Positions 2,397-36,454 are shown, counted from the first letter of the stretch. The stretch: DNA of 64,000 nt from Abyssibacter profundi (GCF_003151135.1 NZ_QEQK01000005.1:321955-385954), one strand, 5' to 3'. Made by a program: numbers and translations. The notes: generated from the sequence alone by a model not told the origin.

Positions 2397-2543
2397 GGGA
2401 ATCGGCGCCCGTGCTGGGCTGCCGACCGTTGCCACTGTGGGCTGGGTCGCAACCCGTCTGCAGTCCAGGGTGTGGTGGGCCGACCGGATTCGGCATCATG
2501 CGTAACGCATAGGCTGCCCGTCGGCGGCACAGGTTTCGCAGAT

Positions 2544-4874
2544 ATGAACGAGTCCACGGCGTCTCCGGTGCCGGAGCGTATCGGGCCCTACCGCATCCTC
2601 AGCGAGCTGGGGCAGGGCGGAATGGGGCGGGTGTTTCTCGCCGAGCAGCAGGATCCGCAGCGCCAGGTTGCGCTGAAGGTCTTGTCGTCGACGGGGCCGG
2701 ATCTTGAGCGCCGTTTCCGACGCGAGTCGCAGGTGCTCGCCGCACTCGAACACCCCAACATCGCGCGGCTTTACGACGCCGGCGTCGCGACCGTGGGTGC
2801 GGTGAATGTGCCGTATCTGGCGATGGCGTATGTTGACGGGCCGACACTGACCGACTACGCCGAGCAGCAATCGCTAGACACCCGCCAGCGCATGGCCTTG
2901 ATCGGCAAGATCGCGCGGGCCGTCCATTTTGCGCATACCCGCGGGGTGATTCACCGCGATCTGAAGCCGGCCAATATTCTGGTCGACGCCCGGGGCGAAC
3001 CCAGAATTCTCGATTTCGGCGTGGCGCGCGTTGTGACCGAGGACAGCGCGACCCGCGTCACGCACGCAGGCGAGATCATCGGCACGGTCCCGTACATGAG
3101 CTGGGAGCAGCTGGTGGGCGATACCAGTCAGGCTGACCCGCGCTCCGATGTGTATTCGCTGGGGGTCATCGCTTACGAGTTGCTGGCCGGCCATCTGCCT
3201 TACGAGGGATTGGAATCCGGCACGCTGGTGACGGCCTTGGAGCTGCTCTCGCGTGCCACGCCACGCCGTGTATCCGCCAGCCAGCCCGCCGCCCGGGGTG
3301 ATCTGGAGACGCTCGTCCACAAGGCCATCGCCCGGGATGTGGACCAGCGCTACCAATCAGCCGCGGAGCTGGCGGACGACATCGACCGCCTGTTGGACCG
3401 TCGCCCCATCCAGGCGCGTCCACCGTCGATTGGCTATGTCACAGGATTGTTCGTGCGACGCCACAAACTGGCGGCGGGCGCGGCGCTGGCCATCGTATTG
3501 TCACTGGTGGTGGCCACGGCGGTCTCCGTTCGATTTGCCGTGTCGGAAGCCCAGGCGCGCCTGGTGGCTGAATCGCGATTGGCCGAGCGCGAGGCGGTGA
3601 ACACCTTTCTGAACGAAATGCTGGTGTCGGCCGATCCTGAGCGCACCCTGGGTGAACGCCTGGCCGTGGTCGATGTGCTGGATGTGGCCAAGGCCGAATT
3701 TGCCTCCAACGAGCGACTGAGTCCGGCCGTGCAGGCACAGCTGGGCCGAACGCTGGGCAATACCTATGTCGCGCTGGGTCGGTATGACGAAGGCATTGGA
3801 TTGCTGGATCGCGCCCTGGAAGCGGCCCGTGATTCGGCGGCCCGTGATCGTCTGCTGGTCGACAAGGCCAGCGCCGAGGTGATTGCTGCGCGGCTGGATG
3901 CGGCGTCGACCACGCTGGATGCGATTAGCGATGCCGCCGATCAGCGGATCGGGATCGAGGCCGCGTTTACGCGCGGCCGCATCGACCTGGAAGCCGGGCG
4001 CAGCGATGAGGCCGTGACCGAGCTGCGGGCCACTTATGACCAGGCCCGCGCGGCGCTGGGTCCGGATGACGATCTCACCCTGGCCGTGGGGCAGCAGCTC
4101 ATGGTGGCGCTGGTGCGCATGGGCGACAACGAGGCCTCGCTGGCCGTCGGCACCGACGTGGCGCAGCGGCTGGAAGCGCGCCTGGGGCGGGATAATCCGC
4201 GGACCGTCGTGGCCTGGGATGGGGTGGCGCTGAACTATCGCGACCAGGCGCGTTTCGATGAATCGATTGCGTTGCTGGCCGAGAACCATGCGATTTACGA
4301 GCGGGTGCTGGGGCCGGAGCATCCCCAGACGCTGATGACCGGCTGTTCGCTGGCCGCCGTTTACGCGATGGCGGGTCAGCCGGAAGCCGGTGTCGCACTG
4401 GTGCAAAAGGGGCACGAACAAATGCGTGCGCTGCTAGGCGATGAGGCCGAGGTCGTGCGGACACTGGCCAGCCTGCGGGGTTACGTGGCCTCCGAAGCCG
4501 GCGACTACGCGCAGGCGGTCGAGATCAATCGCCTGCTGGTCACACAAAGTGAAGCCAAGCCAGGCGGCCCGGAAATCAACGATCTGGTCGACTACAACAA
4601 CCTGGGCAACAACCTGCGCAAGCTGGGCCAGTCGGCCGAAGCCGTGCAGGTCTTTAATCGCCTGCTGGAGCTGGCTGGCGGCAAGCTGAGCCAGGACCAT
4701 CTGCACTACGGCTTATTTGCTGGGAACTACGGCAAGGCCTTGATCGAACACGGCGAGGTTGATCGGGCCCGGCCCGTCCTGGAACGCGCCTGCGATGTCG
4801 TGGGGCAGCATCTGGGCGCCGAGCATCCGCGGACGCAGGCGGTGTGCACGAACCCGGTGCTCGCGGAGGGGTAG
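2544..4874 (+). CDS. Hanks-type serine/threonine protein kinase with a TM helix and C-terminal TPR-like repeats
   Basis: Gly-rich loop GQGGMGRVF, VAIK-like ALKV, catalytic HRDLKPANIL, DFG and APE-like SWEQ. TM segment LAAGAALAIVLSLVVATAV. Long helical repeat tail. The ATG 2544 start is uncertain. Confidence 0.85.
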   Translation: MNESTASPVPERIGPYRILSELGQGGMGRVFLAEQQDPQRQVALKVLSSTGPDLERRFRRESQVLAALEHPNIARLYDAGVATVGAVNVPYLAMAYVDGPTLTDYAEQQSLDTRQRMALIGKIARAVHFAHTRGVIHRDLKPANILVDARGEPRILDFGVARVVTEDSATRVTHAGEIIGTVPYMSWEQLVGDTSQADPRSDVYSLGVIAYELLAGHLPYEGLESGTLVTALELLSRATPRRVSASQPAARGDLETLVHKAIARDVDQRYQSAAELADDIDRLLDRRPIQARPPSIGYVTGLFVRRHKLAAGAALAIVLSLVVATAVSVRFAVSEAQARLVAESRLAEREAVNTFLNEMLVSADPERTLGERLAVVDVLDVAKAEFASNERLSPAVQAQLGRTLGNTYVALGRYDEGIGLLDRALEAARDSAARDRLLVDKASAEVIAARLDAASTTLDAISDAADQRIGIEAAFTRGRIDLEAGRSDEAVTELRATYDQARAALGPDDDLTLAVGQQLMVALVRMGDNEASLAVGTDVAQRLEARLGRDNPRTVVAWDGVALNYRDQARFDESIALLAENHAIYERVLGPEHPQTLMTGCSLAAVYAMAGQPEAGVALVQKGHEQMRALLGDEAEVVRTLASLRGYVASEAGDYAQAVEINRLLVTQSEAKPGGPEINDLVDYNNLGNNLRKLGQSAEAVQVFNRLLELAGGKLSQDHLHYGLFAGNYGKALIEHGEVDRARPVLERACDVVGQHLGAEHPRTQAVCTNPVLAEG

Positions 4875-4890
4875 ATCAACGGAATTCGGC

Positions 4891-6117
4891 TTATGCGTCG
4901 GCAGCAACGGGTAAACCGGTGAGCTGGCCCAGCTGGGCAGCAGCGGCCTCGACGGCTTGCCGAGACTTGAAACCGTCCCCAATGCGCAGGGGTTTGCCCA
5001 GGCGGTGATGGACGGCCAGTGCGTGCCAGACCGCCGTCTGGCGTCCGCTCTGCGTGGTGCCCGTGCGCTGCCAGCCCAGGTGCCTGACCGCTTCTCGTGG
5101 CAGGTGGCGGGTCGTGATCGGCCAGCCGAAACAGAACACCCGCGTGGCGACCTGATCTGCGTCGATGAGGACAATGCGGCGATGACCGAGCGTCCAGAGT
5201 CCACCTAGCAGCATCCCAGTGCCGACGAGCAGGAAGACGCCAGCCATCAGGCCGGGGACCAGCTCAAAGACCGAGCCGACACCCGCCTGGGTTGCCAGGA
5301 ATCCGCCCGATGCGATGCTGCATAAACCGAATAACAGTAAGGGCAACGCCAGCACCCAATTGCGGCCAGGCCTGAAGTCCAGCGTGACCCGGTCCCCACT
5401 GCGGTAGATGTTCATCAGCCGGGACAGGGCCGCTTGCAGTGGCTGTGTGTCGATGCGTGTGGCTTGCTCCGCTGTCCGGTTGCGGGCCGGACCGGGCAAC
5501 ACGGGGATGGCGTACTGGCGTTTGAGATCAGCGCCGGGCTGGGAGACATCCAGCGTCAGACGCCAGACGTGGTAATCGCGGCCAGCCGGTTCGCTGGCCG
5601 GCAATTCCTCCGGCACCTTGAAGTGAAACCACAGCTGCTGTTCGCCGCGCTGCATGGCTTGCAGGTCCAGTGCATGGCTCCAGACCGGACGCGTGATGGT
5701 CTTTTTATGCCCGCGCCGGCGGGACTCGCAGGTCAGCTCAACCCGGATGCGATGGTCTGCGGCCAGCGGGCGACGCAGCTTGAAATACCCGGCCACGTCG
5801 CCACCAATCGCGCCCGGCCAGGGGTCGAGCACGGCTTCGACTTCGCCGAAACGACGCCAGGCCAGCCATTCGCGTAGCGCCAGCAGGCCCAGGCCGGCGC
5901 CCAGTGCATCGAAGAGCAGCACGGCCAGTATCGGCCAGTTGCCGCCGCGCAGTTCCTCCGGGATGGCCAGCGTGCCGGGCAGGGCCAGCGCAAAGACCAC
6001 GGCCGCCATGCCCAGCAGGAGCCAGTGGTTCGACCCCGCCTCACTGCGGATGGCGTGATGCCGCCATCGCTTGTCACGCGTCCACCAGTCGGGCGCTGCG
6101 GGCGAGGGGCGGCTCAC
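4891..6117 (-). CDS. Hypothetical polytopic membrane protein (2 N-terminal TM, soluble middle, 2-3 C-terminal TM)
   Basis: Long ORF with a hydrophobic pattern. GTG start overlapping the stop of the upstream flavodoxin-like gene (GTGA). No recognisable motif. Confidence 0.5.
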   Translation of the reverse strand: MSRPSPAAPDWWTRDKRWRHHAIRSEAGSNHWLLLGMAAVVFALALPGTLAIPEELRGGNWPILAVLLFDALGAGLGLLALREWLAWRRFGEVEAVLDPWPGAIGGDVAGYFKLRRPLAADHRIRVELTCESRRRGHKKTITRPVWSHALDLQAMQRGEQQLWFHFKVPEELPASEPAGRDYHVWRLTLDVSQPGADLKRQYAIPVLPGPARNRTAEQATRIDTQPLQAALSRLMNIYRSGDRVTLDFRPGRNWVLALPLLLFGLCSIASGGFLATQAGVGSVFELVPGLMAGVFLLVGTGMLLGGLWTLGHRRIVLIDADQVATRVFCFGWPITTRHLPREAVRHLGWQRTGTTQSGRQTAVWHALAVHHRLGKPLRIGDGFKSRQAVEAAAAQLGQLTGLPVAADA

Positions 6118-6587
6118 AACACACCGGCTGCCAGACCGGCGGCCATGGCGGCGCCCAGTTCATGGCAGTTGTCGACAAACTCGGGCTGGAACTCGCCTCG
6201 GCAGATCAGCGCATCGGCCACCGGTTTCCAGCGTAGGCCGGTGACAATCCGCTCCACGCCGGCCACGGTACCGCTGCCATCGTTGCCCGCACGCACGACG
6301 AGCGCGTAGGGCAGCCCCTGCTGATGATCCAGGGTGGGGTAGTAATTGCGATCGAAGAAGTCCTTCATCGCACCACTCATGTAGGCGAGGTTCTCCGGTG
6401 TCAGCAGCAGGATGCCGTCCGCCGCCAGCACGTGCTCGGCGTGGGTCTCGAAGGGTGACAACGACACCAGCTTCACCTGGTCCTCGCCGCCCGCTTTGGC
6501 GCCTGCGCGCAATGCCGCCAGCAGACGCCGGAGATTGGGTGACACCGCGTGGGCCACGATGAGTAGCGTCTTCTGCTCCGCGTTCAT
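6114..6587 (-). CDS. Flavodoxin-like fold NAD(P)H-dependent FMN reductase family protein
   Basis: ATG 6587 preceded by a GGGGGAC RBS. The KTLLIVAHAVSPNLRR...GILLLTPENLAYMSGAMKDFFDR pattern is typical of NADPH-dependent FMN reductase/flavodoxin-like proteins. Confidence 0.65.
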   Translation of the reverse strand: MNAEQKTLLIVAHAVSPNLRRLLAALRAGAKAGGEDQVKLVSLSPFETHAEHVLAADGILLLTPENLAYMSGAMKDFFDRNYYPTLDHQQGLPYALVVRAGNDGSGTVAGVERIVTGLRWKPVADALICRGEFQPEFVDNCHELGAAMAAGLAAGVL

Positions 6588-6736
6588 GCTGTCCCCCTGG
6601 GTGGTCGGCTCAGTCAGGCGGGTGGGCCGGGCGTGCGATACTCCGCGCCATGGCACCGAACCTGCTGTTCGTTGTCCTTGATTTGATGCATCCGCCGGTC
6701 TGACGCCGGAGTGGATTTTCGCTTTTAGGAGTTCCG

Positions 6737-8602
6737 ATGCGTATCACGATTGTATCGCTGCTGGCCGCCTTGCTTGCAGCCTGCGGTGCCCCCTCGACCG
6801 ACAGCAGTTCCTCGACCGAGGACAAGCGCGAGGCCACGACCGAAACCGCGATGAGCGAAACCGATCGCCTCAACGCGTGGTTCGAGGAGAAGTTTGAGGA
6901 AGAACTGCAGTTCAGCCCGATCCAGATGACCTTTCTGGGCCGCAAGGACCGCTATGGTGAACTGGGTGACTTCTCCGAGGCGGGCGCAAAGGCGCAGCTG
7001 GAGTGGCGCAAGACCGTCACGGAAGAGATGAAGAGCGCATTCGACTACGAGGCGCTTAGCGATGAGGCCAAGATGTCCTATGACATCTGGGTGTACGAGA
7101 CCCAGCAGGCAGAAGCCGGTTGGCCCTATCGTTTCAACCAGTACCCCTTCAATCAGATGCAGGGGATGCACACCTTCCTGCCGACCTTCCTGATTAGCTT
7201 CCACAAGGTGGAATCAGCCGAAGACATGCAGGCCTATATCTCGCGTGTGCGTGAGCTGCCGGCTGCGTTTGGCGAGTTGATCAAACTGGCCAAGGCCTCG
7301 GCGGACAAGGGCATTCGTCCGCCGAAGTTCGCCCATGAGGCCGTGATCAAGGAGTCCAAGAAGCTCATCGCCGGCGCACCGTTTGCCGATGGTGAGGACG
7401 CTTCGATCTGGACGGATATGCAAACCGAGATCAGCAACCTGCTCGACAGCGAGGTCATCGACGCCGAGCAGGCCGACACGCTGAAGGCTGAGGCCAAGGC
7501 GGCGTTGATCGATAGCTTCAAGCCGGCGTACGAATCCGTGATTGCCTGGGTGGAATCCGATCTGCCGAATGCGGCGGTTAACCCCACCGGCGTGGGCGGC
7601 ACGCAGCCCAATGGCGAGGCGTATTACAAGCACCGCCTGTGGACGCAGACCACCACGGATATGACAGCTGATCAGATCCACCAGATCGGCCTGGACGAGG
7701 TCGAACGGCTGCTGGGTGAGATGACGGCGCTGAAGAATCGGGTTGAGTTCGATGGCGATTTGAACGCTTTCTTCGAATTCCTGAACACCGATTCGCAGTT
7801 CCGCTTCCCGAACACGGATGAGGGCCGCGAGATGTACATCGCCGAGGCCACCGCCGCCATCGACACCATCAAGCAGTCTCTGCCTGACTACTTCGGCCGG
7901 CTTCCCAAGGCCGATCTGGTGGTCAAGCGAGTCGAGCCCTTCCGTGAGCAGGACGGGGCGGCCCAGCACTACTTTCCGGGTACCCCGGATGGTTCGCGGC
8001 CAGGCACCTACTACGCGCATCTCTCCGACATGGAGGCCATGCCGATTCCCGAACTGGAAGTGATTGCCTACCACGAAGGTGTGCCAGGCCATCACATGCA
8101 GATTTCCATTGCGCAGGAACTGGAGGACGTGCCCACCTTCCGCACCCAGGCGCGTTTCACCGCCTACATCGAAGGCTGGGCCCTGTACTCCGAGTGGCTG
8201 GCCAAGGAAATGCCCGGCACCTACGAGGACCCTTACTCAGAGTTTGGTCAGCTGTCTTCGGAAATCTGGCGGGCGATTCGCCTGGTTGTCGATACCGGCC
8301 TGCACGCCAAAGGCTGGACCGAGCAGGAAGCGGTCGACTACTTCGACAAGAACTCGCCGGTGCCACTGACGTCGATCAAGTCCGAAATCCAGCGTTACCT
8401 GGTCATCCCCGGTCAGGCGACCTCGTACAAGATCGGCATGCTCAAGATTCAGGAGCTACGCCGCGAGGCCGAGGCCGAGCTGGGTGACGCCTTCGATATC
8501 AAGGGTTTCCATGACACCGTGCTCGGTGGTGGGGCGCTGCCGTTGGAGCTGCTCGAACGTCGCGTCCAGCGTTGGGTCGATAGCCAGAAGCCAGCCGCGT
8601 AA
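6737..8602 (+). CDS. DUF885 family lipoprotein (putative metallopeptidase-like)
   Basis: AGGAG RBS. Lipobox signal MRITIVSLLAALLAACG. HEGVPGHHMQ motif characteristic of DUF885. Confidence 0.8.
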   Translation: MRITIVSLLAALLAACGAPSTDSSSSTEDKREATTETAMSETDRLNAWFEEKFEEELQFSPIQMTFLGRKDRYGELGDFSEAGAKAQLEWRKTVTEEMKSAFDYEALSDEAKMSYDIWVYETQQAEAGWPYRFNQYPFNQMQGMHTFLPTFLISFHKVESAEDMQAYISRVRELPAAFGELIKLAKASADKGIRPPKFAHEAVIKESKKLIAGAPFADGEDASIWTDMQTEISNLLDSEVIDAEQADTLKAEAKAALIDSFKPAYESVIAWVESDLPNAAVNPTGVGGTQPNGEAYYKHRLWTQTTTDMTADQIHQIGLDEVERLLGEMTALKNRVEFDGDLNAFFEFLNTDSQFRFPNTDEGREMYIAEATAAIDTIKQSLPDYFGRLPKADLVVKRVEPFREQDGAAQHYFPGTPDGSRPGTYYAHLSDMEAMPIPELEVIAYHEGVPGHHMQISIAQELEDVPTFRTQARFTAYIEGWALYSEWLAKEMPGTYEDPYSEFGQLSSEIWRAIRLVVDTGLHAKGWTEQEAVDYFDKNSPVPLTSIKSEIQRYLVIPGQATSYKIGMLKIQELRREAEAELGDAFDIKGFHDTVLGGGALPLELLERRVQRWVDSQKPAA

Positions 8603-26282: not shown

Positions 26283-27566
26283 ATGACAACGACACGCCCC
26301 CTTGCCATCGATCTCTTCGCGGGCGCGGGTGGGTTGAGCCTAGGCTTCGAACAAGCGGGCTTTGATCTACTTGCGGCCGTTGAAGTCGATCCCGTTCACG
26401 CCTCCGTGCATAAGTACAACTTTCCGGATTGCGCGGTGTTCCCACGATCAGTCGAGAAGATTTCTGGCGCGGAACTTTTGAGGTTGGCTGGAGACCGGAG
26501 CATCGACGTCATCGTGGGTGGCGCTCCTTGCCAAGGGTTCTCTTTGATTGGTCAAAGGGCGCTAGATGATCCGCGGAACTCGCTAGTGAAAGAGTTCATT
26601 CGTATTGTCTCCGAGGTTCGTCCGCGATATTTCGTGTTTGAAAATGTCAAGGGTCTTACTCTCGGCAAGCATCGCAGATTTCTGGAAGAGATCGTCGAAA
26701 CTCTTCAAGGCGAAGGGTATTCTGTTCGACGGCCATGGAAAGTATTGAATGCTAGGGACTATTCGGTCCCACAGAATCGCGAAAGGTTATTCCTAATTGG
26801 CTGCCTTGATGGTGAGCCTCCTGAATATCCAAACCCGCATGAATCATTGGTTAGTTGCGAGGAGGCATTGGGTGACTTGCCTGATGCTGAATCGTTTGCG
26901 GAGCTCGAAAGCCAAGACTACGTAGCCTATGAACACGCAACCAACTTGTCGGAATATGCACGGCATATGCGCTGTCTTGGCCGTAACGGTTGGGACTTCG
27001 GTTATAGGAGAAGCTGGAACCCTTCGCTGCTAACGTCAAGCTTGCGAACATCTCACACCGAGATTTCCCGACGTAGATTTGGCGAGACGCTCGAAGGGAA
27101 AGTTGAGCCAATTTCACGATTCTTCAAACTTCCTTCCGACGGTCAATCTAATACCCTTCGTGCAGGCACCGATTCAGCACGAGGTGCGTTCACAAGTCCG
27201 AGACCCATTCACTACGCGTATGATCGGTGCGTAACGGTTCGCGAGATGGCTCGCCTTCATGGTTTTCCTGATTGGTTCCGGTTCCACGCCACGAAGTGGC
27301 ATGGGGCGAGGCAAATCGGAAATGCCGTGCCGCCGCCTCTCGCAAAGGAAATTGCGGCACAAATCATCGGTGCGATGGGCGTGAGCCCGGCGAGACCGAA
27401 GCGAACTCTGAAGCTCGGTGATCCTGACTTGCTGGAAATGGATATGTCTCAGGCTTCCAAGTTTTGGGGAATTGAGGTGCCTATTGGGAAGCGGAATCGC
27501 AAAAGCGGTGCTAAGAAACGGTCGCAGCTAGAAGTTGAACACTCGTTGAGTCTTGCCGATGGCTAA
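26283..27566 (+). CDS. DNA (cytosine-5)-methyltransferase (Dcm family) with a ~60-aa basic C-terminal tail
   Basis: Motif I FAGAGG, motif IV PCQGFS, motif VI ENVKGL, motif VIII QNRERLFLIG, motif X GNAVPPPLA. The gene is ~50% GC, against ~65% for the flanking DNA. Confidence 0.9.
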   Translation: MTTTRPLAIDLFAGAGGLSLGFEQAGFDLLAAVEVDPVHASVHKYNFPDCAVFPRSVEKISGAELLRLAGDRSIDVIVGGAPCQGFSLIGQRALDDPRNSLVKEFIRIVSEVRPRYFVFENVKGLTLGKHRRFLEEIVETLQGEGYSVRRPWKVLNARDYSVPQNRERLFLIGCLDGEPPEYPNPHESLVSCEEALGDLPDAESFAELESQDYVAYEHATNLSEYARHMRCLGRNGWDFGYRRSWNPSLLTSSLRTSHTEISRRRFGETLEGKVEPISRFFKLPSDGQSNTLRAGTDSARGAFTSPRPIHYAYDRCVTVREMARLHGFPDWFRFHATKWHGARQIGNAVPPPLAKEIAAQIIGAMGVSPARPKRTLKLGDPDLLEMDMSQASKFWGIEVPIGKRNRKSGAKKRSQLEVEHSLSLADG

Positions 27567-28368
27567 GAAACCTACAAATCGGTACCAAATGTTGGTAGAG
27601 AAAATCTTCTTCGACAATTTTGAAGAAGGCTCGGAAGAAATATTTTTCGTTCGCGAGGATTTGGAATCAGCGGCAAGTGATCTCGATATCGGCCTCCCGA
27701 AGAACCTAGGCGATGTCGTCTACGCTATGCGCTATCGAACTCCGCTTCCTGCCTCAGTGGAGGCTACACAACGCGAGGGAAAGGAATGGATTATCGAGGG
27801 CGTTGGGCGCGCCAAGTACGCTTTTAAACTTGTAAAGATCAACCGGATTACGCCCAACACCGAACTCATTACGATCAAGATTCCCGACGCAACGCCGGAA
27901 ATCGTCTCTGAATATGCTCTGTCTGACGAGCAGGCGCTCCTGGCAAAAGTGCGCTACAACCGTCTCATCGATTTGTTTCTGGGCGTAACTAGCTATTCGC
28001 TGCAAAATCATCTACGAACAACTGTGAAGGGCGTCGGGCAGATCGAGATCGATGAGATCTATGTCGGCGTTGATCAACACGGCGTTCAGTATGTCGTGCC
28101 AGTGCAAGCCAAGGGCGGAAATGATCAACTTGGAGTTGTACAGACCAAGCAAGACATTCTTTGTTGTGCCGAGAAGTACCCTGATCTTATTTGTCGCGCG
28201 ATTTCCACGCAGTTCATGGCAGATGATCTGATCGCAATATTCGAGCTAACGGTACAAGACGACCAAATTCGCTTGGTGCAGGAGAAGCACTATAAGTTGG
28301 TGCCAAGAGATCAGATTTCGTCGTCTGACATTCGTCAGTATCGTGCGTTGGCGCGGCCGGGCATCTAA
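27553..28368 (+). CDS. Uncharacterised 271-aa protein translationally coupled to the C5-MTase; putative PD-(D/E)XK-like restriction endonuclease
   Basis: 14-nt overlap with the MTase gene. Low-GC codon usage. The candidate nuclease core IEIDEIYVGVD...VPVQAKGG has a D...(E/Q)xK pattern. No family recognised by eye. Confidence 0.5.
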   Translation: MPMAKKPTNRYQMLVEKIFFDNFEEGSEEIFFVREDLESAASDLDIGLPKNLGDVVYAMRYRTPLPASVEATQREGKEWIIEGVGRAKYAFKLVKINRITPNTELITIKIPDATPEIVSEYALSDEQALLAKVRYNRLIDLFLGVTSYSLQNHLRTTVKGVGQIEIDEIYVGVDQHGVQYVVPVQAKGGNDQLGVVQTKQDILCCAEKYPDLICRAISTQFMADDLIAIFELTVQDDQIRLVQEKHYKLVPRDQISSSDIRQYRALARPGI

Positions 28369-28469: not shown

Positions 28470-29696
28470 TCACAACTCCAGAGGCGCACCCCGATAGGTA
28501 CGAACAGGGCTTTGCGGCGTTTCGACGGTTTGAGCTTGGTAGGTCACGACGCAGGTGACGGGCTGGCCGAAGACGCAGACTTCGGTGATGTTTTCAGCCT
28601 CGGCGCAGGCGACGACGGCGCCGATCACCGATTGTGCGATGGGGGTGGGGACGACGGTCTGGACCCAGCTGCGTTCGCGGTTCAGGCGTCGGCCCATTGC
28701 GACCTTGGACTCAGCCTCGACGAACCGGGCGGACAGGACATTGGCCCCGGTAGCCCCTGCGGCGACGGCCGCATCCAGCAAGGGTTGCATGTGTTGGCCG
28801 CTGGAGATGACGGTCACACGGGTATGGGGTTCAGCCCCCTGGGTGATCTCGGCGGCATCCAGGTCCACGCCTGCCGCATGGGCGCCGGTGCCCAGGCGCA
28901 CGACCTGTCGCCGCCGCCAGTCTGAATGCCCCAACAGCTCGTCGAGTGCTGCGATGACCTGCTGCATGTCGGCCGCGTGGTGGGGATGGCCCACGGTGGT
29001 GGCCAGGCTGACGATGCCTTTTTGCACGGGCATGCGGAATAGATAGCCACGGCCGGGCATGGTCAGTCGGCCGGCCTCGGTCATGGCCTGGACGACGGCG
29101 TCGGCATCGGCGTTGTCGACGATGACCAGCATGACTTCTTTGGTGCGCTTTTTGGTGATGCGCAGCCAGCCCAGGCGGTCCCGCAGGCCGCGACCCTCGC
29201 AGTAGTACACCACCGGGCCGTGAGCGCCGGCACGCATCGCAGCCCTGGCCACAGTGTCGGTGTGTTCCGGCTGCAGAATGCAGGCGATGGCCGCGAGGTT
29301 TTCGCGCAGGCCAATGGAGGCGTCATCGCCGGTTTCCCCTGCCTCCAGGCCCTCCCAGATCGGGAAGTCCGGCGTGTGGATCACATCGTCGCAGGGCACG
29401 GAGTACACCGCGCCGGAACCCGGATAGCGCAGGCCGGCCTGGTCGGCGATATCTCGGATGACGCTATCGACCTGAGCATCCGGCACCAGAAACTGGAGGA
29501 TCTCCTTTTCCGGGCTGATCAGCGGCAGAAACCGCTGCAACCATTGCTGACGGATGAGGGTGCCACGGGCGTTGGTCACAAAGGCGTTGCGCTCCCCTGC
29601 GGCAAACAGCCGTTCGATCACCGGCTTGACCGATGATGGCGGCAGGATGGCCGTGACCAGCGAAACCTTGTGCAGAATTTCAAAATGCTGGCTCAT
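28470..29696 (-). CDS. Single-chain triple PII (GlnB)-like domain protein
   Basis: Three internal repeats of about 105 aa, each with the PII beta-alpha-beta/T-loop/beta-alpha-beta pattern. For example KVSLVTAILPPSSVKPVIERLFAAGERNAFVTNARG ... GLRYPGSGAVYSVPCDDV. A ~60-aa linker lies before repeat 3. ATGA-type overlap with the upstream DUF1538 gene. Confidence 0.6.
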   Translation of the reverse strand: MSQHFEILHKVSLVTAILPPSSVKPVIERLFAAGERNAFVTNARGTLIRQQWLQRFLPLISPEKEILQFLVPDAQVDSVIRDIADQAGLRYPGSGAVYSVPCDDVIHTPDFPIWEGLEAGETGDDASIGLRENLAAIACILQPEHTDTVARAAMRAGAHGPVVYYCEGRGLRDRLGWLRITKKRTKEVMLVIVDNADADAVVQAMTEAGRLTMPGRGYLFRMPVQKGIVSLATTVGHPHHAADMQQVIAALDELLGHSDWRRRQVVRLGTGAHAAGVDLDAAEITQGAEPHTRVTVISSGQHMQPLLDAAVAAGATGANVLSARFVEAESKVAMGRRLNRERSWVQTVVPTPIAQSVIGAVVACAEAENITEVCVFGQPVTCVVTYQAQTVETPQSPVRTYRGAPLEL

Positions 29697-31561
29697 GCGA
29701 CCCCCAATTCGGGGTTATTGCGGGCGCGCGACACCACCCGGCCGACCAGCAAGACGGTGATGATCGGCCCGACCGAGGCCAGCGCCAGCACGCCGAAGCC
29801 GTCGATGACACCGGGCACGTTGCTGCCGATGCCCAGGCCCATGGCCAGCACCAGCGGCACGGTGATGGGGCCGGTGGTCACCCCGGCGCTATCCCAGCCG
29901 AAGTTCACGAACTCCTCGGAGGAGATCGCCGTCAGCAGCAAGAGCAACAGATAGGGCGGAATCAGCAGGTATTCCAGTGGGATGTTGAAGGCGATCTTGA
30001 TCACGCCGACAGCGATCCCGGCGCCGACGCCGAGGGCCACCGACTGCATGAGCAGCGATTTGCGAAAGGCGCCGATGGTGATCTTTTCGACGGTCTCGCC
30101 CAGGGCGTTGAGCGCCGGTTCGGCCAGCGTGGCGCCGTAGCCGAGGAAGAATCCGAAGATGGCCGCCACGATCTTGCCCGTGGTCGCCGAGTCGAACAGC
30201 GGCTGCTGCAAGCCCTCTGCGCCCCAGGGCACTAACGTGGCGAAGCTGAGCGGCACATTGCTGCCAAGCTGGGCGCCCAGCGGGGTCAGGCCCAGCGTGA
30301 TGCCCAGCATGAACAGGCTCATGCCGACGACGGAGAAGCCGATGCCGATGAAGATTTCGTCGCGGTTACGCAACCGCTCCGGCAAGACCAGGCGTAGGGT
30401 GATGAGCAGGAACAGGCACAAGGGCACGATGGCGCGCAGGGCCGCGGCCAGACCGTCGCGCAGCTCGTCCAGAAACTCCACCGAAGGGTCCCACACCGCC
30501 TGCGAGACCACCTTGGATTGCAGCTTGGGCTGCTTTTCCAAAATCAGCGTGGCCTCGTCCATGACAATGCGGCCATCCACGAGCTGCGGGTCGCCACCTG
30601 CGAACTTCAGCGTGTAGTCGTCCGGTGGCGTGCCGGTTTGCAGAAAGCGATCAAAATCGTCGACATCAAACCCATCGGGCCGATTGCGGGGCGTGGTGTC
30701 TGATGCCGCCTGCCGGTCGGCGACGGCGGCGGGCTCACCGGCGTAATGGGGCTGGCCGTAGTAATCCTGCTGCTGAACATGCCACAACCCCAGCATCAGA
30801 ACCGCCAGCACGGGGAACAGCGAGGCCAGCGTGACGATGCCGAAGCCGGCATTACCGGCATCGCCATCACCGACAATGCGGCAGACCCCAATGCCCAGCG
30901 CTAGCACCAGCGGGACGGTGACCGGCCCGGTGGTAACGGCACCGCAGTCCCAGGCCAGGCCCAGCACCGGCTGCAGGGCATCGTGATGATGCGCGTAGAG
31001 CGTGAGCGCGCATAACCCACCCACCAGCGGCAGGATGAACCACTTGAGCGACCAGCCGAGAAAGAAGCGCAGAATGCCCAGCAGCACCGCCACGCCCACG
31101 CCAATGCCGACCACCATGACCAGCTGGTTGGCGAAATCATTGAGCAGTGAGTAGAGCAGGGGCGCTTGCTCCGGCTGCACCCCGGCGCCCGCGCTGCGCA
31201 GGACGGCGATGGCCGGTTCGGCAAAGGTGGCGCCGACCCCCAGCAAGAAGGCAAAGCCGAGAATAATGGGCAGCGACGAATTACGCGGCAGCACTGCGCC
31301 GATCGTTTCGCCTAGCGGCATTAACCCCAGCCGCAGGCCTTCCATGAAAAACATCAGGCCGATGGCCACGATGCCGATGCCGGCGCCAATCATCAGGGCG
31401 TGCACGATGGGCAGGCCCAGCACCAGAATCTGGAACAACAGCAGATAGGCCACGATGAACCAGATTGCGCGCAGCTGTTCCTTCAGGTTTTCCAGCACAT
31501 AGGGCGTCAGAATCTTCAGCGTGTCGCCAAAGCTCAGTCGAACGCGTTCTGTCGCTGTCAT
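29693..31561 (-). CDS. Membrane protein with two fused DUF1538 domains (putative transporter)
   Basis: 622 aa. Two homologous halves, each about 6 TM with a GxGxG-rich loop (AIAVLRSAGAGVQPE / AEPALNALGETVEKI). A soluble ~110-aa linker carries the GDGDAGNAG and QQQDYYGQPHY segments. Confidence 0.6.
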   Translation of the reverse strand: MTATERVRLSFGDTLKILTPYVLENLKEQLRAIWFIVAYLLLFQILVLGLPIVHALMIGAGIGIVAIGLMFFMEGLRLGLMPLGETIGAVLPRNSSLPIILGFAFLLGVGATFAEPAIAVLRSAGAGVQPEQAPLLYSLLNDFANQLVMVVGIGVGVAVLLGILRFFLGWSLKWFILPLVGGLCALTLYAHHHDALQPVLGLAWDCGAVTTGPVTVPLVLALGIGVCRIVGDGDAGNAGFGIVTLASLFPVLAVLMLGLWHVQQQDYYGQPHYAGEPAAVADRQAASDTTPRNRPDGFDVDDFDRFLQTGTPPDDYTLKFAGGDPQLVDGRIVMDEATLILEKQPKLQSKVVSQAVWDPSVEFLDELRDGLAAALRAIVPLCLFLLITLRLVLPERLRNRDEIFIGIGFSVVGMSLFMLGITLGLTPLGAQLGSNVPLSFATLVPWGAEGLQQPLFDSATTGKIVAAIFGFFLGYGATLAEPALNALGETVEKITIGAFRKSLLMQSVALGVGAGIAVGVIKIAFNIPLEYLLIPPYLLLLLLTAISSEEFVNFGWDSAGVTTGPITVPLVLAMGLGIGSNVPGVIDGFGVLALASVGPIITVLLVGRVVSRARNNPELGVA

Positions 31562-31573
31562 GCGCAGTTGCTC

Positions 31574-32428
31574 CTAACGGCCGGTGGGGACAACCGGCGT
31601 TGCGGCGCCGCCGCCGGCTCCGATGATCACCGAGACTTTCTCCTTGGTCTTGACCACCTCGACCATCTCTTTCTGAATTTCCAGACTGCGATAGGTCAGG
31701 AACTGATCGGGATTCAGGCCAAAGGCTTCGGCGTAGGCCTTGTCGGCCAGGGCCTTGTTCTTCTCGGCGTCGGCGCGCGACAGCTCTGCCCGGGCCCGGG
31801 CAATTTCGGTGCGTGTGCGCTGCTCCTGTGCGGCCGTGCGTGCGGTTTCCTCCAAGACCACCGGCGGAGGTGTTACGCCACCGATCACCACGCGATTAAT
31901 GCGTACGGGCAGCGATTCCTCCTGCACGTAGTCGCGAATGGTTTCCAGAATGGCGACCTCGCCCTGTGAGGTCACGGTGGGGTCGGTGGTCAGGTCGAAT
32001 ACCCGCTGGCCGCGAGCAAAATCGCGCAGCGCCGTGCGGAAGACTTCCTGCACCTTGGTCCGGTACCACTTGGGGCCGAAGCGTTCGTGAACAACCGGGG
32101 TTTGCCCGGCTTCCAGCTGCACCAACAGGTAGGCCCGAAAATCCACCGGTACGTTGTCCGCCGTCACCAGGTCATCGAACTTTTCGTTGAACTGCTGGGG
32201 GCGGATGTCGTACTCGACCAGGTGGGATGTCCACCAGAGCCAGTGCGTGCCGGTGGCGCGTGGCTGCGGCTCAACGCCGGGTGTGCCGAAGAACCAGGGC
32301 TGATCGACCTGCACCCCCTCATGGCCGGCATCCACGGACTCGGGGCCGTAGATGCAGCCCGTACTCCCCAGCAGCATCAGCACCATGGCCCCCCATGTGC
32401 CGCTGCGTCCACTCAAGATTGCCCGCAT
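31574..32428 (-). CDS. SPFH/band-7 (stomatin/prohibitin-like) domain lipoprotein
   Basis: Lipobox LLGSTGC. SPFH core (FDLTTDPTVTSQGEVAILETIRDYV) followed by a coiled-coil Ala/Glu-rich segment (ETARTAAQEQRTRTEIARARAELSRADAE). Confidence 0.75.
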   Translation of the reverse strand: MRAILSGRSGTWGAMVLMLLGSTGCIYGPESVDAGHEGVQVDQPWFFGTPGVEPQPRATGTHWLWWTSHLVEYDIRPQQFNEKFDDLVTADNVPVDFRAYLLVQLEAGQTPVVHERFGPKWYRTKVQEVFRTALRDFARGQRVFDLTTDPTVTSQGEVAILETIRDYVQEESLPVRINRVVIGGVTPPPVVLEETARTAAQEQRTRTEIARARAELSRADAEKNKALADKAYAEAFGLNPDQFLTYRSLEIQKEMVEVVKTKEKVSVIIGAGGGAATPVVPTGR

Positions 32429-32501: not shown

Positions 32502-33047
32502 TCAGTCTCCCGTACAGAATTCGTGGATCTGATAGGTGATGTCACCCGTTGAAGTGGACTGTGTGTGCGCCAGCTCGGCTGCGTCGAAGGCCGAGGTGGT
32601 CTCCAAAAAGTATTGATCGCGAGCCAGTCCTCCACCGCGCACACCATTAATGCCGGTGAGTTGCCGGCTGTCGCCCGTGGCGGTGCCATCGAGGTAGGTC
32701 CTCAGCTCCACGGTGTGACTGGTGGCCTCACCGTCAAACACCGATTCGGCGAACACGCTCAAGCGCGTGCCGGCCGCATAGACCACCCCATCCTGAGCAA
32801 TTGCACGCAGGTGCGTGGTGCCGGAGCCGGCCGTTTCGACGACCAGCGTCGCCGCACTGGCGAGGTTGCCATCAATGGCCAGACGGGGATTTGAGGCGGT
32901 GCAACCGGTGCAGGTGCCGGGTGCATCCACCTGGGTGGCCCCACCCGCAATCGCGTTGCAGGTGGGGGTTCCATCCGAACTGCCGGAGCAGCCGGCCATG
33001 ATGAGTGTCAGTGCGGTGATTCCGGCGGGCATCCAGCGTGGGGTCAT
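32502..33047 (-). CDS. Hypothetical lipoprotein
   Basis: Lipobox LIMAGCSG. Gly/Thr-rich, no recognisable motifs. Lies 73 nt upstream of the SPFH gene on the same strand. Confidence 0.5.
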   Translation of the reverse strand: MTPRWMPAGITALTLIMAGCSGSSDGTPTCNAIAGGATQVDAPGTCTGCTASNPRLAIDGNLASAATLVVETAGSGTTHLRAIAQDGVVYAAGTRLSVFAESVFDGEATSHTVELRTYLDGTATGDSRQLTGINGVRGGGLARDQYFLETTSAFDAAELAHTQSTSTGDITYQIHEFCTGD

Positions 33048-33167
33048 GTGGTGTCTCCTCTCGTCCTGCAGAGAGAGTACGGAGTGTGACGGCTAATCCG
33101 GACACCCAGCCGGATCCCTGGCGGGGGGGCTGCATTTCGCCTGGAGGTTGGCGCGGACAACTGAGGT

Positions 33168-34928
33168 TCAGGGAGCCAACGGCGGCGGGTCGGCCGGGCC
33201 CGATGACGGCAGGGTGGCCGGCGTCAGGCGTTGGCTGCCGGCGACCGACTGCAGCATGACCGGGTCCATGGATTCGGCAATCGTCGGAGTTTGCACGGTG
33301 GAGTAGTACCACTCGCTTTGCACCCGCTCGGCCGTAAAGTCCATGAGCATGTAGCCGAGGTTGGTTTCGTTGGCGTGTTTCATGTGCGGGTTGAAGCCCG
33401 AGGTCATCAGGCCGGTCCAGACCGGGACCGGCACCTGGGCCACGCCCCCACAGCACAGCTCCACACCCAGGCTGCCGTCGCCAGTCAGCGGGTTGTAGCT
33501 GGCCGTGTCGTTGGGATCGCGCGGCAGATCGCAGGCAATCACCGCATGGATGTCGCCGAAGATGAATACGCTGTTCTCGATGCCGTTGGCTTCGATGGTG
33601 TCGTACACGGCCTCGCGGTCGAAACGGTAGCCATCCCAGGCATCGGCATTGACGTAGCAGGGGTCTGTCGCAGGTGCGCTTGTCGTGCAGCCCGTCAGCG
33701 GGTTGGCCGGGCCTGCGTTCAGGGGGGCGAAGGTCGTGCCGTTGCCAATGATCTTCCAGGTGGCGGTACTGGCTGCCAGTTCCTGCAGAAACCACTCGCG
33801 CTGCTCGGCCCCGAGAATGGTTTGCGCCTCATCTAGCACGAACTCCGGATTTTCGGCCACGCGCCCGGACAGCCGCGTATCGAGCATGAAGATATCGATC
33901 ATCTCGCCGTAGGGAATCTTGCGCCAGATGCGGCCCAGGCCGTTCGGGTCATAGCCGGTCTGGCCTGTTTCCAGTGCGGGCTCGCCATCGGCAGGCGCGT
34001 CGAACCCGGTGCCGTTCTCCCGGATCGGCATCCATTCGAAGTAGGCACGGATGGCCCAGCCCATGCGCTCGGCCCAGTAGCCCTCGCCGGGTGCATCGGG
34101 GTCGTCCGGATCGCCTTCGGTGTGGTTGGAGGCACCGGTGGAGTAGCTGTTGTTGGTTGTTTCGTGGTCATCCCAGGTGGTGATCCAGGGATGCTGGCGG
34201 TGGGCCTCCTGTAGATCCGGATCGGTCTTGTACTGGGCGTGGCGCTGGCGGTAATCGGCCAGGCTGATGATCTCGTAGTCGGGCTCATGGGCACGCACCT
34301 GCGAGCCGCCGCCTTCGTAGATGTAGTCGCCAAGGTGGATGAACAGGTCCAGATCGGCGCGCTCGCCGACGCGGCCAAAGGCGTTGAAGTAACCAAAGGT
34401 GTAGCTGTTGCAGGCGGCAGAGGCAATGCGTACCTGCGAAACATCATCGCTGCGAGAGGGCGCGGTCTTGGTGCGGCCGATTGGCGATTGCACCACGCTG
34501 CCATCGGGCTGGGTCACCGAGAACTGGTAGTAGTACGTCGTGTAGCTGGCCAGCCCGGTGGGGTCCACCTTGACGGTGTAGTCACGGTCGGCTCCGGTGA
34601 TGAAGCGGCCCGTTTTCACGGTGTCGGTCATCTCGGGCGTGGTCGACAGCACCCAATCCACCGAAATGTCGGCTGCCGTGGGCTCTGCCGGGGTGACGCG
34701 TGTCCACAGAATGACCCGGTCGGTCCGCGGGTCTCCGCTGGCAACACCGTGTAGGAACGCCAGAGTGGTTGAGGCTGGAGCCGGACCCGATGAGCTGGAT
34801 GAACAACCGGCGCCGGCACCCATGGCAAAGGCGCCCAACGAAGCGCCACCAAAGCGCTTAAGAAACGTGCGTCGATTAATCGGCAGGCGGGGAATGGCGC
34901 GAAAACGCCGGCGGTGAAAGTCGCTCAT
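33168..34928 (-). CDS. PhoD family alkaline phosphatase/phosphodiesterase with a Tat signal
   Basis: Twin-arginine motif NRRTFLKRFGGASLGAFA. PhoD-like metallophosphatase blocks (GDYIYEGG, WDDHETTNN). Start at ATG 34928; the alternative is 34997. Confidence 0.8.
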   Translation of the reverse strand: MSDFHRRRFRAIPRLPINRRTFLKRFGGASLGAFAMGAGAGCSSSSSGPAPASTTLAFLHGVASGDPRTDRVILWTRVTPAEPTAADISVDWVLSTTPEMTDTVKTGRFITGADRDYTVKVDPTGLASYTTYYYQFSVTQPDGSVVQSPIGRTKTAPSRSDDVSQVRIASAACNSYTFGYFNAFGRVGERADLDLFIHLGDYIYEGGGSQVRAHEPDYEIISLADYRQRHAQYKTDPDLQEAHRQHPWITTWDDHETTNNSYSTGASNHTEGDPDDPDAPGEGYWAERMGWAIRAYFEWMPIRENGTGFDAPADGEPALETGQTGYDPNGLGRIWRKIPYGEMIDIFMLDTRLSGRVAENPEFVLDEAQTILGAEQREWFLQELAASTATWKIIGNGTTFAPLNAGPANPLTGCTTSAPATDPCYVNADAWDGYRFDREAVYDTIEANGIENSVFIFGDIHAVIACDLPRDPNDTASYNPLTGDGSLGVELCCGGVAQVPVPVWTGLMTSGFNPHMKHANETNLGYMLMDFTAERVQSEWYYSTVQTPTIAESMDPVMLQSVAGSQRLTPATLPSSGPADPPPLAP

Positions 34929-35042
34929 GAGTGGTCGGTGCTGAGGCCAAGGTTGGGAATCATATCCCGTGCCTGTTGCCGTCGGATGACGGTGCATCGG
35001 CGTCGGATTGCCTTGAAGTGATAATTCTAAAATAATGGAACT

Positions 35043-35375
35043 ATGAATGAATCAACCGCTACGCAACGTCTCGCCTCGCTGGCGCAGGACACCCGGCTGA
35101 CCATTTTTCGCACGCTGGTTCAGGCCGGGCCGCAAGGCCTGAATCCCGGGGTGCTGGCCGAACGATTGGGCATTGCCCAGGCCACGCTGTCCTTTCATCT
35201 CAAGGAGCTGCGGCATGCCGAGATGATCGTGTCCCGGCAGCAGGGGCGGTTCATTTTCTACTCCGCCAATTTCGGAGCGATGAACGAATTACTGAGCTAC
35301 CTCACGGAAAACTGCTGCGCCAGCAGCGACGAGGATTGCGTGACCGTGCCCTGCTGCGAGGAGGCCCTGCCATGA
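35043..35375 (+). CDS. arsR: ArsR/SmtB family metalloregulatory transcriptional repressor
   Basis: HTH segment LAERLGIAQATLSFHLKELRHAEMI. C-terminal Cys cluster CCASSDEDCVTVPCC. First gene of the ars operon. Confidence 0.85.
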   Translation: MNESTATQRLASLAQDTRLTIFRTLVQAGPQGLNPGVLAERLGIAQATLSFHLKELRHAEMIVSRQQGRFIFYSANFGAMNELLSYLTENCCASSDEDCVTVPCCEEALP

Positions 35376-36454
35376 CCGCGGCGCAAGCACCGTCCACCCC
35401 GGAGGCATCGACGAACGTGACGGGCATGTCGATGTTCGAGCGCTATCTCACCGTCTGGGTCGCTGCCTGCATTGTGGTCGGGATCGGCCTCGGACACTTC
35501 GTCCCCGGTGTGGCGCAGACGCTGGGCGAGCTCGAGGTCGCACAGGTCAACCTGCCGGTGGCGGGGCTGATCTGGTTAATGATTATTCCGATGCTGGTGA
35601 AGATCGACTTCGCTGCGCTGTCGCAGGTGCGCCAGCACTGGCGGGGCATCGGCATCACGCTGTTGGTGAACTGGGCGGTGAAGCCGTTTTCGATGGCTTT
35701 TCTGGGCTGGCTGTTCATCGGCGTTCTGTTTCGGGATTGGCTGCCGGCCGAGCAGATCGATTCCTACCTTGCGGGCTTGATCCTGCTGGCCGCCGCGCCC
35801 TGTACGGCCATGGTGTTCGTCTGGAGCAATCTCACCAAGGGTGAGCCGCATTTCACGCTGAGTCAGGTCGCGCTGAACGATGTGATCATGGTGTTTGCAT
35901 TCGCGCCGCTGGTGGGGCTGCTGCTCGGGCTGGCGTCGATTACCGTGCCCTGGGATACGCTGCTGCTGTCGGTTGGCCTCTACATCATGGTGCCGGTGCT
36001 GTTGGCCCAGTGGATTCGCCGCAAGTTACTGGCGCGAGGAGGGCAGGCCAGCCTCGATTCGGCGCTGGCTGTGTTGCAGCCGCTGTCGATTGTTGCCCTG
36101 TTGGCCACGCTGGTGCTGCTGTTCGCATTTCAGGGCGAGCAAATCGTGCGTCAGCCGCTGGTCATCGCCTTGCTGGCCGTGCCCATTCTGATCCAGGTCT
36201 ATTTCATTGCCGGGCTGGCCTATGGGCTGAACCGTTGGAGCGGAGAGGCCCATTGCGTGGCGGCGCCATCGGCCCTGATTGGCGCCAGCAATTTCTTCGA
36301 GCTGGCGGTGGCGACGGCCATTGTGTTGTTCGGGCTGGAGTCCGGTGCCGCACTGGCCACGGTGGTGGGCGTGCTGATCGAGGTTCCCGTGATGCTCTCG
36401 GTCGTGCGCATCTTCAATGCGACCAAGCCTTGGTACGAGCGAGGCCTGATATGA
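35372..36454 (+). CDS. acr3: ACR3 family arsenite efflux permease
   Basis: ATGA overlap with arsR. About 10 TM. ACR3 signatures MSMFERYLTVWV and LIWLMIIPMLVKIDF. Confidence 0.85.
   Translation: MTAAQAPSTPEASTNVTGMSMFERYLTVWVAACIVVGIGLGHFVPGVAQTLGELEVAQVNLPVAGLIWLMIIPMLVKIDFAALSQVRQHWRGIGITLLVNWAVKPFSMAFLGWLFIGVLFRDWLPAEQIDSYLAGLILLAAAPCTAMVFVWSNLTKGEPHFTLSQVALNDVIMVFAFAPLVGLLLGLASITVPWDTLLLSVGLYIMVPVLLAQWIRRKLLARGGQASLDSALAVLQPLSIVALLATLVLLFAFQGEQIVRQPLVIALLAVPILIQVYFIAGLAYGLNRWSGEAHCVAAPSALIGASNFFELAVATAIVLFGLESGAALATVVGVLIEVPVMLSVVRIFNATKPWYERGLI

Follow-up and report, generated by a model that had tools for sequence, protein, structure and literature searches.

Gene content of the locus and linkage of its genes

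This study concerns three consecutive minus-strand genes in a 64,000-nucleotide (nt) stretch of Abyssibacter profundi (NZ_QEQK01000005.1:321955-385954; hereafter the window, with coordinates counted from the first letter of the stretch), which encode a single-chain triple PII-like protein, a double-DUF1538 membrane protein and an SPFH lipoprotein. The conserved unit is a translationally coupled cassette of two genes, DUF1538 and PII-like, and not the three-gene module that a preliminary description of this DNA had proposed. The gene coordinates and junctions given there match ours exactly: open reading frames (ORFs) were called at 28470-29696 (408 amino acids, aa), 29693-31561 (622 aa) and 31574-32428 (284 aa), with the 622-aa and 408-aa genes overlapping by 4 nt (ATGA) and the 284-aa and 622-aa genes separated by a 12-nt spacer that holds an AGGAG Shine-Dalgarno sequence. 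The window has a guanine plus cytosine (GC) content of ~64%, and its nearest relatives belong to uncultured Gammaproteobacteria of marine origin, close to Abyssibacter, Salinisphaerales and Nevskiales. A consensus scan for promoters and terminators found none above the shuffled expectation, so that the limits of the operon are drawn from spacing alone. The features of the three genes are as follows, with the PII-like domains abbreviated as D1 to D3 and AlphaFold2 as AF2.

28470-29696, minus strand: 408-aa protein with three PII-like domains in one chain, proposed to regulate the DUF1538 transporter from the cytoplasm (ORF, Pfam, profile, AF2)
29376-29666, minus strand: PII-like domain 1 (D1), aa 11-107, with a PGSG B-loop (Pfam 23.3 bits, hhalign to D2)
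29508-29567, minus strand: long, partly conserved T-loop of D1, aa 44-63 (mean column identity 0.70)
29007-29297, minus strand: PII-like domain 2 (D2), aa 134-230 (Pfam 34.9 bits; orthologue of the single-domain DUF1538-associated PII proteins)
29145-29189, minus strand: short, near-invariant T-loop of D2, aa 170-184, GLRDRLGWLRITKKR (mean column identity 0.88)
28911-28973, minus strand: conserved helical insert between D2 and D3, aa 242-262 (helices 244-255 and 259-262 in the model; identity 0.75)
28545-28826, minus strand: degenerate PII-like domain 3 (D3), aa 291-384 (profile match at 292-397, hhalign to D2, ferredoxin-like modelled fold)
30770-31561, minus strand: N-terminal DUF1538 half, aa 1-264, UmpA-like, seven hydrophobic segments (NCBIfam, Pfam, hydropathy)
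30488-30769, minus strand: linker between the halves, aa 265-358, predicted helix plus four-stranded beta mini-domain, probably periplasmic (AF2, lysine plus arginine (K+R) bias)
29693-30487, minus strand: C-terminal DUF1538 half, aa 359-622, UmpB-like, seven hydrophobic segments (NCBIfam, K+R bias)
31574-32428, minus strand: SPFH/Band_7 lipoprotein, 284 aa (Pfam Band_7, lipobox)

To place the cassette among its relatives, one genome per GTDB species was scanned for triple-PII proteins, which gave 150 relatives, and the loci of 80 of these, from Gammaproteobacteria of many orders and from Cerasicoccus (Verrucomicrobiota), were retrieved. DUF1538, with both halves, lies directly upstream and on the same strand in all 80, and it forms one continuous double-DUF1538 ORF in 71 of the 73 loci that have the whole gene on the contig. 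In the two exceptions, both from metagenome-assembled genomes (L072 at 5446-5450 and L079 at 4539-4542), the ORF is broken inside one half and not at the linker; a frameshift of the assembly or a pseudogene is more probable here than a true split system. In 59 of 79 loci the PII gene starts before the DUF1538 gene ends (stop and start overlap by 4 nt in 32, by 1 nt in 22, by 8 nt in four and by 11 nt in one). Clustering of the flanking genes brought up no third conserved partner and no clue to the substrate, as no family occurs in more than nine of the 80 loci, and an Rfam scan of the window and of five diverse DUF1538 loci found no riboswitch that would hint at a substrate.

In the reverse direction, ten loci (L081-L087 and L091-L093) were reached from DUF1538 and not from PII; L081 is the one unannotated match of a tblastn search against annotated plasmids, and L086 and L087, being frameshift-ridden long-read assemblies, contribute PII-like fragments only. 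Whatever the fusion state, a PII-like gene follows directly downstream in all ten (Clostridia, Oscillospiraceae, Pseudomonas and metagenomes). One DUF1538 gene with one PII gene of 102-105 aa is found in two Clostridia-type loci (L082, L083) and in a metagenome (L091), a split DUF1538 pair with one PII gene in L085, and one or two DUF1538 genes with two separate PII-like genes in L084 (Pseudomonas, 5152-5885) and L093 (4773-5513), the second of which is highly divergent and has no Pfam match. The triple-PII and the fused-DUF1538 states are separable, since a split DUF1538 pair accompanies a complete 376-aa triple-PII protein in L092 (4989-6119) and a fused DUF1538 protein accompanies a two-domain PII protein in L081 (Subdoligranulum, 6374-7090). 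The single-domain partners score 61-92 bits against a D2 profile and 27-47 bits against D1 or D3, which makes D2 the ancestral orthologue and D1 and D3 additional copies; the R-(D/E/Q)-R-L-G motif of the D2 T-loop is also common to the proteobacterial single-domain partners of L084, L085 and L093. The linkage of DUF1538 and PII, whose conservation the preliminary description had named as a point to check, is hence family-wide and predates the fusions.

Domain architecture of the two cassette proteins

The 408-aa protein matches the Pfam family P-II (PF00543) with 2e-16 and 60.6 bits (cutoff 25) in two stretches; of the individual domains, D2 passes the cutoff, D1 stays just below it and D3 gives no match. 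A profile of 56 homologs matches solved GlnB, GlnK and PII chains at residues ~63-105, 134-225 and 292-397, and the domains are recognisable as relatives of one another by hhalign (D1-D2, E=9e-13; D2-D3, 8e-9; D1-D3, 9e-6). The AF2 model, with a mean predicted local distance difference test (pLDDT) of 79.9 and a predicted template modelling score (pTM) of 0.79, contains three beta-alpha-beta-beta-alpha-beta units at aa 11-107, 134-230 and 291-384, its confidence dropping exactly at the expected T-loop positions, and each modelled domain matches GlnK/GlnB structures in Foldseek with a template modelling (TM) score of 0.6-0.75 normalised to the target. Judged by these profile and model comparisons, the protein is made up of three mutually homologous PII-like domains, as had been supposed from a first reading. 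Of the Pfam assignments proposed at that stage, PF07556 was indeed recovered twice and PF01145 once; PF00543 was found in two stretches instead of three, and it is the profile and the model that identify D3. Homologs of the protein fall into more than 200 clusters of ~400 aa.

Conservation is unevenly spread over the three domains, with a mean column identity of 0.69 in the D2 core, 0.57 in the D1 core and 0.44-0.49 in D3. The D2 T-loop has the highest value of all regions in the protein, and the residues G168, G170, R172, G176, L178 and T181 in and around it are invariant. A PGxG B-loop is kept in D1 and D2; D3 has no Gly-rich B-loop, and its short T-loop is weakly conserved. The insert between D2 and D3, which also occurs in the triple-PII protein of L092, has its own set of invariant residues (A242, Q246, D252, G256, W260 and R261).

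The 622-aa protein matches DUF1538 (PF07556) with 1.2e-111 and 371.5 bits in two stretches, and its halves are 30-37% identical to one another, which bears out the double-DUF1538 architecture described before. Contrary to the earlier assumption, the family is not wholly of unknown function: one DUF1538 system, and only one, has been characterised, UmpAB of Halomonas zhaodongensis. Complementation of E. coli KNabc and assays on everted vesicles showed it to be a heterodimer that works as a pH-dependent Na+(Li+,K+)/H+ antiporter and needs both of its non-identical subunits (PMC5484666). In the 622-aa protein, an UmpA-like half is followed by an UmpB-like half, which is the order of the umpA and umpB genes, and invariant carboxylates lie within strongly conserved hydrophobic motifs of the N half (E74, E115 and D205) and of the C half (E481 and D557). 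The AF2 model (pLDDT 75.7, pTM 0.76) has many broken helices, and the predicted fold has no match among solved structures; sequence matches of the 622-aa and 284-aa proteins to PDB chains (light-harvesting complex (LHC) proteins, Fab chains) were rejected as chance. To regard the linker as a Gly/Asp-rich spacer, as proposed earlier, is incomplete, because a mini-domain of a helix (300-309) and four beta strands (within 316-343) is predicted at aa 300-343, with G323, G330, I332 and W357 invariant. The linker is far shorter in a Firmicute fusion of 517 aa in total. The fusion of the two halves is itself not rare, since fused proteins are common in the family, which has 2283 clusters at 50% identity and whose closest representatives are mostly fusions of 550-750 aa.

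Upstream and flanking genes

The 284-aa protein matches Band_7 (PF01145) with 1.9e-19 and 70.9 bits (cutoff 23.6), and its lipobox (MVLMLLGSTG-C25) fits the PROSITE-style lipoprotein pattern, so that its designation as an SPFH lipoprotein stands. Its membership in the module does not. Apart from the 80 loci, three further relatives (L088, L089 and L090) were examined for the gene content upstream of the cassette; L089 and L090 are metagenome sequences of the window's clade, and the DUF1538 proteins of the three are 85%, 83% and 99% identical to that of the window, respectively. A Band_7 gene precedes the cassette in the window's clade only, namely in two of the 80 genome loci (L001 and L002) and in L089 and L090, and it is absent from the other 78. 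In L088 the downstream order DUF1538-PII-PLDc_2-PMSR is kept and both PhoD and Band_7 are replaced upstream by unrelated genes; unrelated genes also lie upstream of the cassette in Sinimarinibacterium/Nevskiales and in all other loci. The gene tracks PhoD and not the transporter: PhoD adjoins Band_7 in the window, L002, L089 and L090 and was not detected in L001. The SPFH gene is therefore a lineage-specific neighbour, for which a functional tie to DUF1538/PII is not supported, although the 12-nt spacing makes its co-transcription with the cassette plausible within the clade.

The remaining features annotated around the three genes are:

32502-33047, minus strand: 181-aa ORF with a lipobox, called as 84 aa in L090, its reality and extent being uncertain
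33168-34997, minus strand: PhoD-like phosphatase, exported by the twin-arginine translocation (Tat) route (twin-arginine motif)
35043-35375, plus strand: ORF for an ArsR-family helix-turn-helix (HTH) regulator (sequence inspection, Pfam labels of syntenic loci)
35336-36454, plus strand: ORF for an ACR3/SBF-type arsenite-efflux-like permease (sequence inspection, Pfam labels of syntenic loci)
26283-27566, plus strand: C5 cytosine methyltransferase (Pfam DNA_methylase 1e-69; PADLOC MTase_II 1e-161)
27553-28368, plus strand: type II restriction enzyme, 271 aa (PADLOC REase_II 8e-132; no Pfam match)

Given the lipoboxes and the twin-arginine motif, PhoD, the 181-aa ORF and Band_7 can be seen as one block of exported proteins (window 32502-34997 plus Band_7), which is present or absent upstream of the cassette as a unit. 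In Pseudomonas sp. SP16.1 (L084), a 649-aa protein with a faint PhoD match (1963-3912) is encoded directly upstream of the DUF1538/PII operon of this distant genus; this may be due to chance or may reflect a link to phosphate metabolism that recurs. The ArsR-like and SBF ORFs overlap and are divergent from PhoD, and HTH_20 and SBF flank PhoD in L089, with SBF alone being recorded in L090. On the other side of the cassette, the genes of the type II restriction-modification pair (26283-28368) overlap, are convergent with the PII gene and coincide with a dip of the GC content to 53% against ~64%. The pair is a strain-specific island, as it is absent at this position from the near-identical contigs L090 and L001.

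Interpretation of the cassette and comparison with known systems

From our point of view, the cassette as a whole encodes an UmpAB-like cation/proton antiporter gated by a dedicated, hard-wired and asymmetric PII pseudo-trimer, a reading that we hold with slightly better than even confidence. The 622-aa protein would be an UmpA/UmpB heterodimer in a single chain, that is, a DUF1538 secondary transporter with two antiparallel seven-segment halves and a small periplasmic domain between them. Its activity, extrapolated from UmpAB, would be monovalent-cation/proton antiport; by this analogy cations and protons are the most likely substrates, and they are also the weakest link of the mechanism. The 408-aa protein would act as a dedicated cytoplasmic PII-like regulator, in which the non-covalent trimer has been replaced by three fused and diverged domains that may pack as an intramolecular pseudo-trimer. 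The pTM of this protein is high for a chain with disordered linkers and suggests a fixed packing of the domains, for which a pseudo-trimer is the simplest arrangement. A small-molecule effector could be sensed in the non-equivalent clefts between the domains, and the T-loop of D2, perhaps joined by that of D1, would dock on the cytoplasmic face of one asymmetric transporter and switch it off or on. It is the near-invariance of the D2 T-loop, by itself, that points to this loop as the transporter-contacting element, and by analogy with GlnK for AmtB and SbtB for SbtA, the switching of the transporter would be post-translational.

The asymmetry may be understood from the target. Because the transporter is a pseudo-heterodimer and not a trimer, a symmetric homotrimer would carry two superfluous T-loops, and a near-invariant T-loop in D2, a semi-conserved one in D1 and a decayed one in D3 are what selection under a 1:1 asymmetric complex would be expected to leave. 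D2 would then be the working T-loop domain, D1 an auxiliary and D3 a degenerate structural copy. Rather tentatively, one could go further and regard the 408-aa protein as the first covalent and functionally asymmetric PII pseudo-trimer, bound 1:1 to a non-trimeric, inverted-repeat transporter without a solved fold relative.

The topology that this mechanism requires is suggested by the distribution of positive charges. With homologous loops counted for a positive-inside bias under crude segment definitions, the K+R bias averages +3.2 in the N half and -4.4 in the C half of 51 fused proteins, and the Firmicute fusion gives +6 versus -6. The opposite bias and the seven segments per half suggest that the halves form an antiparallel inverted repeat with both termini in the cytoplasm and the linker domain in the periplasm. 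The presumably homodimeric singleton DUF1538 proteins (L082, L083 and L091) have a mild, N-half-like bias of +2 to +3, which fits the antiparallel model poorly because dual topology predicts a value near zero.

Both the crudeness of this count and the bias of the singletons weigh against the proposed mechanism, and so do several further points. The N half scores 232.8 bits against NCBIfam UmpA (NF041627) and the C half 178.2 bits against UmpB (NF041628), far under the equivalog cutoffs of 490 and 500; the 622-aa protein is therefore, as far as profile scores tell, a homolog and not an equivalog of UmpA/UmpB, and its substrate may differ. The activity of UmpAB was itself established by one laboratory through heterologous complementation and everted vesicles (PMC5484666). 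The linkage in 80 of 80 loci was seeded on triple-PII homologs, with the reverse sample amounting to ten loci. Moreover, the two-domain PII chain of L081 cannot by itself close a trimer, at odds with the idea that one chain makes one trimer.

The residues of D2 add to these points. In PII proteins, ATP/ADP and 2-oxoglutarate are liganded (E. coli GlnB numbering) by G87/G89 of the B-loop, K90, R101, R103, Q39 and K58, and the canonical T-loop has ~18-20 residues with the Tyr51/Ser49 modification site. D2 was compared by HMMER alignment to M. jannaschii GlnK1 and by alignment to E. coli GlnB. It retains the equivalents of G87/G89 (G215/G217) and of K58 (K186) and has R172 for Q39, Y218 for K90 and V229/L231 for R101/R103. 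Its T-loop, at 15 residues, is not of the long type, and neither is that of D3 with 12; relative to E. coli GlnB, D2 has an 11-residue gap that spans the Y51 region. The D1 loop of ~20 residues is unrelated in sequence to the canonical T-loop. Since Q39, K90, R101 and R103 are replaced and the T-loop is ~11 residues shorter, D2 is a PII domain by fold and ancestry and not a canonical ATP/2-oxoglutarate sensor. For gating of the ATP/ADP/2-oxoglutarate/cAMP type, which the preliminary description had considered, most of the canonical ATP/2-oxoglutarate residues are missing.

Among the alternatives to a gated antiporter, the one that survives best keeps DUF1538 and its PII-like gating and assigns them a substrate other than Na+/K+/H+, another ion or a small metabolite, for example an anion, bicarbonate or an organic solute; in that case the antiport of UmpAB would be incidental or confined to its own sub-family. 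We regard this as possible but on the whole doubtful. It would accommodate the distance to the UmpA/UmpB thresholds, the size and diversity of the family and the absence of a solved fold relative to constrain the chemistry, and the known PII-like/transporter pairs carry NH4+ and HCO3- and not Na+ (PMC10710835); neither the context of the 80 loci nor the riboswitch scan indicates a substrate. However, cation/proton antiport is the one activity that experiment has established in the family (PMC5484666), the five invariant carboxylates are as expected for cation/proton coupling, and DUF1538 is among the cation-homeostasis Pfams, grouped with cation transporters, that were selected as predictive of growth pH (PMC13255231).

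Less likely is that the transporter needs the triple-PII protein as a permanent subunit, for its structure or for gating, much as KtrB/TrkH carry their KtrA/TrkA rings, and that no reversible, ligand-dependent regulation is involved. The absolute co-occurrence with DUF1538, the translational coupling, which suggests a fixed stoichiometry, and the loss of canonical effector-binding residues would all suit such a subunit. Yet UmpAB, cloned without a PII gene, gave antiport in E. coli (PMC5484666), so that a PII partner is unnecessary for transport in at least one member, and D1 and D2 retain the Gly-rich B-loop that PII clefts with a bound ligand typically have.

That the SPFH lipoprotein serves as the scaffold of a DUF1538/PII complex in a module of three components, as the preliminary description envisaged, is very unlikely: the shared strand, the probable co-transcription within the clade, the arrangement kept in L001, L002, L089 and L090 and a linker domain that would lie on the same side of the membrane as the lipoprotein speak for it, but the distribution of the SPFH gene largely refutes it. 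The gene is missing from 78 of the 80 loci with a triple PII and, despite a closely related DUF1538 protein and intact downstream synteny, from L088 as well, and it goes along with PhoD and the exported-protein block. Finally, that the 408-aa protein is a canonical GlnB/GlnK-type ATP/ADP/2-oxoglutarate nitrogen regulator, as the PF00543 match and the source annotations would have it, deserves hardly any credence in view of the replaced ligand residues, the short T-loop without the Y51 region, the absence of amtB, glnA or any other nitrogen gene from the conserved context of the 80 loci and DUF1538 as the only invariant partner.

If PII-like gating of an asymmetric DUF1538 antiporter is correct, the implications reach beyond this locus. 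Few signal transducers are as widespread as PII proteins, which textbooks present as symmetric homotrimers acting on targets that are symmetric and often trimeric as well. The variants found next to DUF1538, with one, two or three PII domains in a chain or with separate genes, would document how a symmetric homotrimer passed in steps into a hard-wired heterotrimer, alongside the series of DUF1538 singletons, pairs and fusions, and at least 150 reference species with a fused triple PII would show PII signalling adapting to an asymmetric target. A natural single-chain PII protein would also allow the contributions of individual T-loops and ligand clefts to be dissected. The current generalisation that only trimeric transporters come under PII control (PMC10710835) has a plausible counter-example in the cassette. 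DUF1538 comprises more than 2,000 clusters at 50% identity, in which a single member has been characterised and none has a solved structure; for this family the cassette provides a testable regulatory logic, and the 622-aa transporter, with a fold that has no detectable solved relative, is a strong candidate for structural work. Homologs of the two proteins are named 'P-II family nitrogen regulator' and 'DUF1538 domain-containing protein' in databases; the strict linkage should help to better such annotations, as the DUF1538-linked among the former are very unlikely to be nitrogen regulators. In the searchable literature, which omits most subscription-journal articles, we found no description of the DUF1538/PII linkage or of a single-chain triple PII, and none of the DUF1538 papers there mentions PII; the DUF1538 fusion, a part of what the preliminary description took to be undescribed, is common.

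Several known systems resemble parts of the locus. Like HflK/C and QmcA/YbbK, the 284-aa protein combines a Band_7 domain with a charged, coiled-coil-like tail behind it; it differs from them in being anchored by a lipobox and not by an N-terminal transmembrane helix, and its match to HflC is only marginal. With NifI1/NifI2 (PDB 9p1x), the PII-like proteins share that PII oligomers are built from non-identical subunits, to which D1/D2/D3 and the two PII-like genes of L084 and L093 may be compared, whereas NifI1 and NifI2 are separate polypeptides that regulate nitrogenase and no transporter. The 9p1x entry, with its two 'P-II family' chains, had also been considered as a DUF1538-PII complex and was rejected, as it is the NifI1/NifI2-nitrogenase supercomplex.

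GlnK is a homotrimer that sits on the homotrimeric AmtB channel in a 3:3 complex. As in that pair, the PII-fold gene of the cassette adjoins and is probably co-transcribed with a transporter gene, and the T-loop is the obvious docking element (PMC10710835). The differences lie in the single chain with three unequal domains, in the pseudo-heterodimeric partner and in D2, whose ~11 residues shorter T-loop has no Tyr51 site and whose ATP/2-oxoglutarate residues are not conserved. SbtB, which regulates the cyanobacterial bicarbonate transporter SbtA and forms a divergent sub-family of PII with a separate set of effectors, is similar in that a dedicated, divergent PII-like gene lies directly downstream of the regulated transporter and outside nitrogen control (PMC9974498). 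However, SbtB is a homotrimer on trimeric SbtA, to which DUF1538 is unrelated, and the 408-aa protein has no evident adenine-nucleotide-binding signature. UmpAB, lastly, shares with the 622-aa protein the PF07556 family, the UmpA-UmpB order, the seven hydrophobic segments per half and the two non-identical halves. It consists of separate subunits, in contrast to the one polypeptide with an inserted mini-domain of ~95 aa that scores under half of the equivalog cutoffs, and no PII partner is mentioned in the UmpAB paper (PMC5484666). Taken together, a PII-like regulator paired with a transporter is a kind of system already known, and the cassette belongs to it by adjacency, common orientation and conservation in all 80 triple-PII and all ten DUF1538-seeded loci; what appears to be new is the layout of the triple PII in a single chain.

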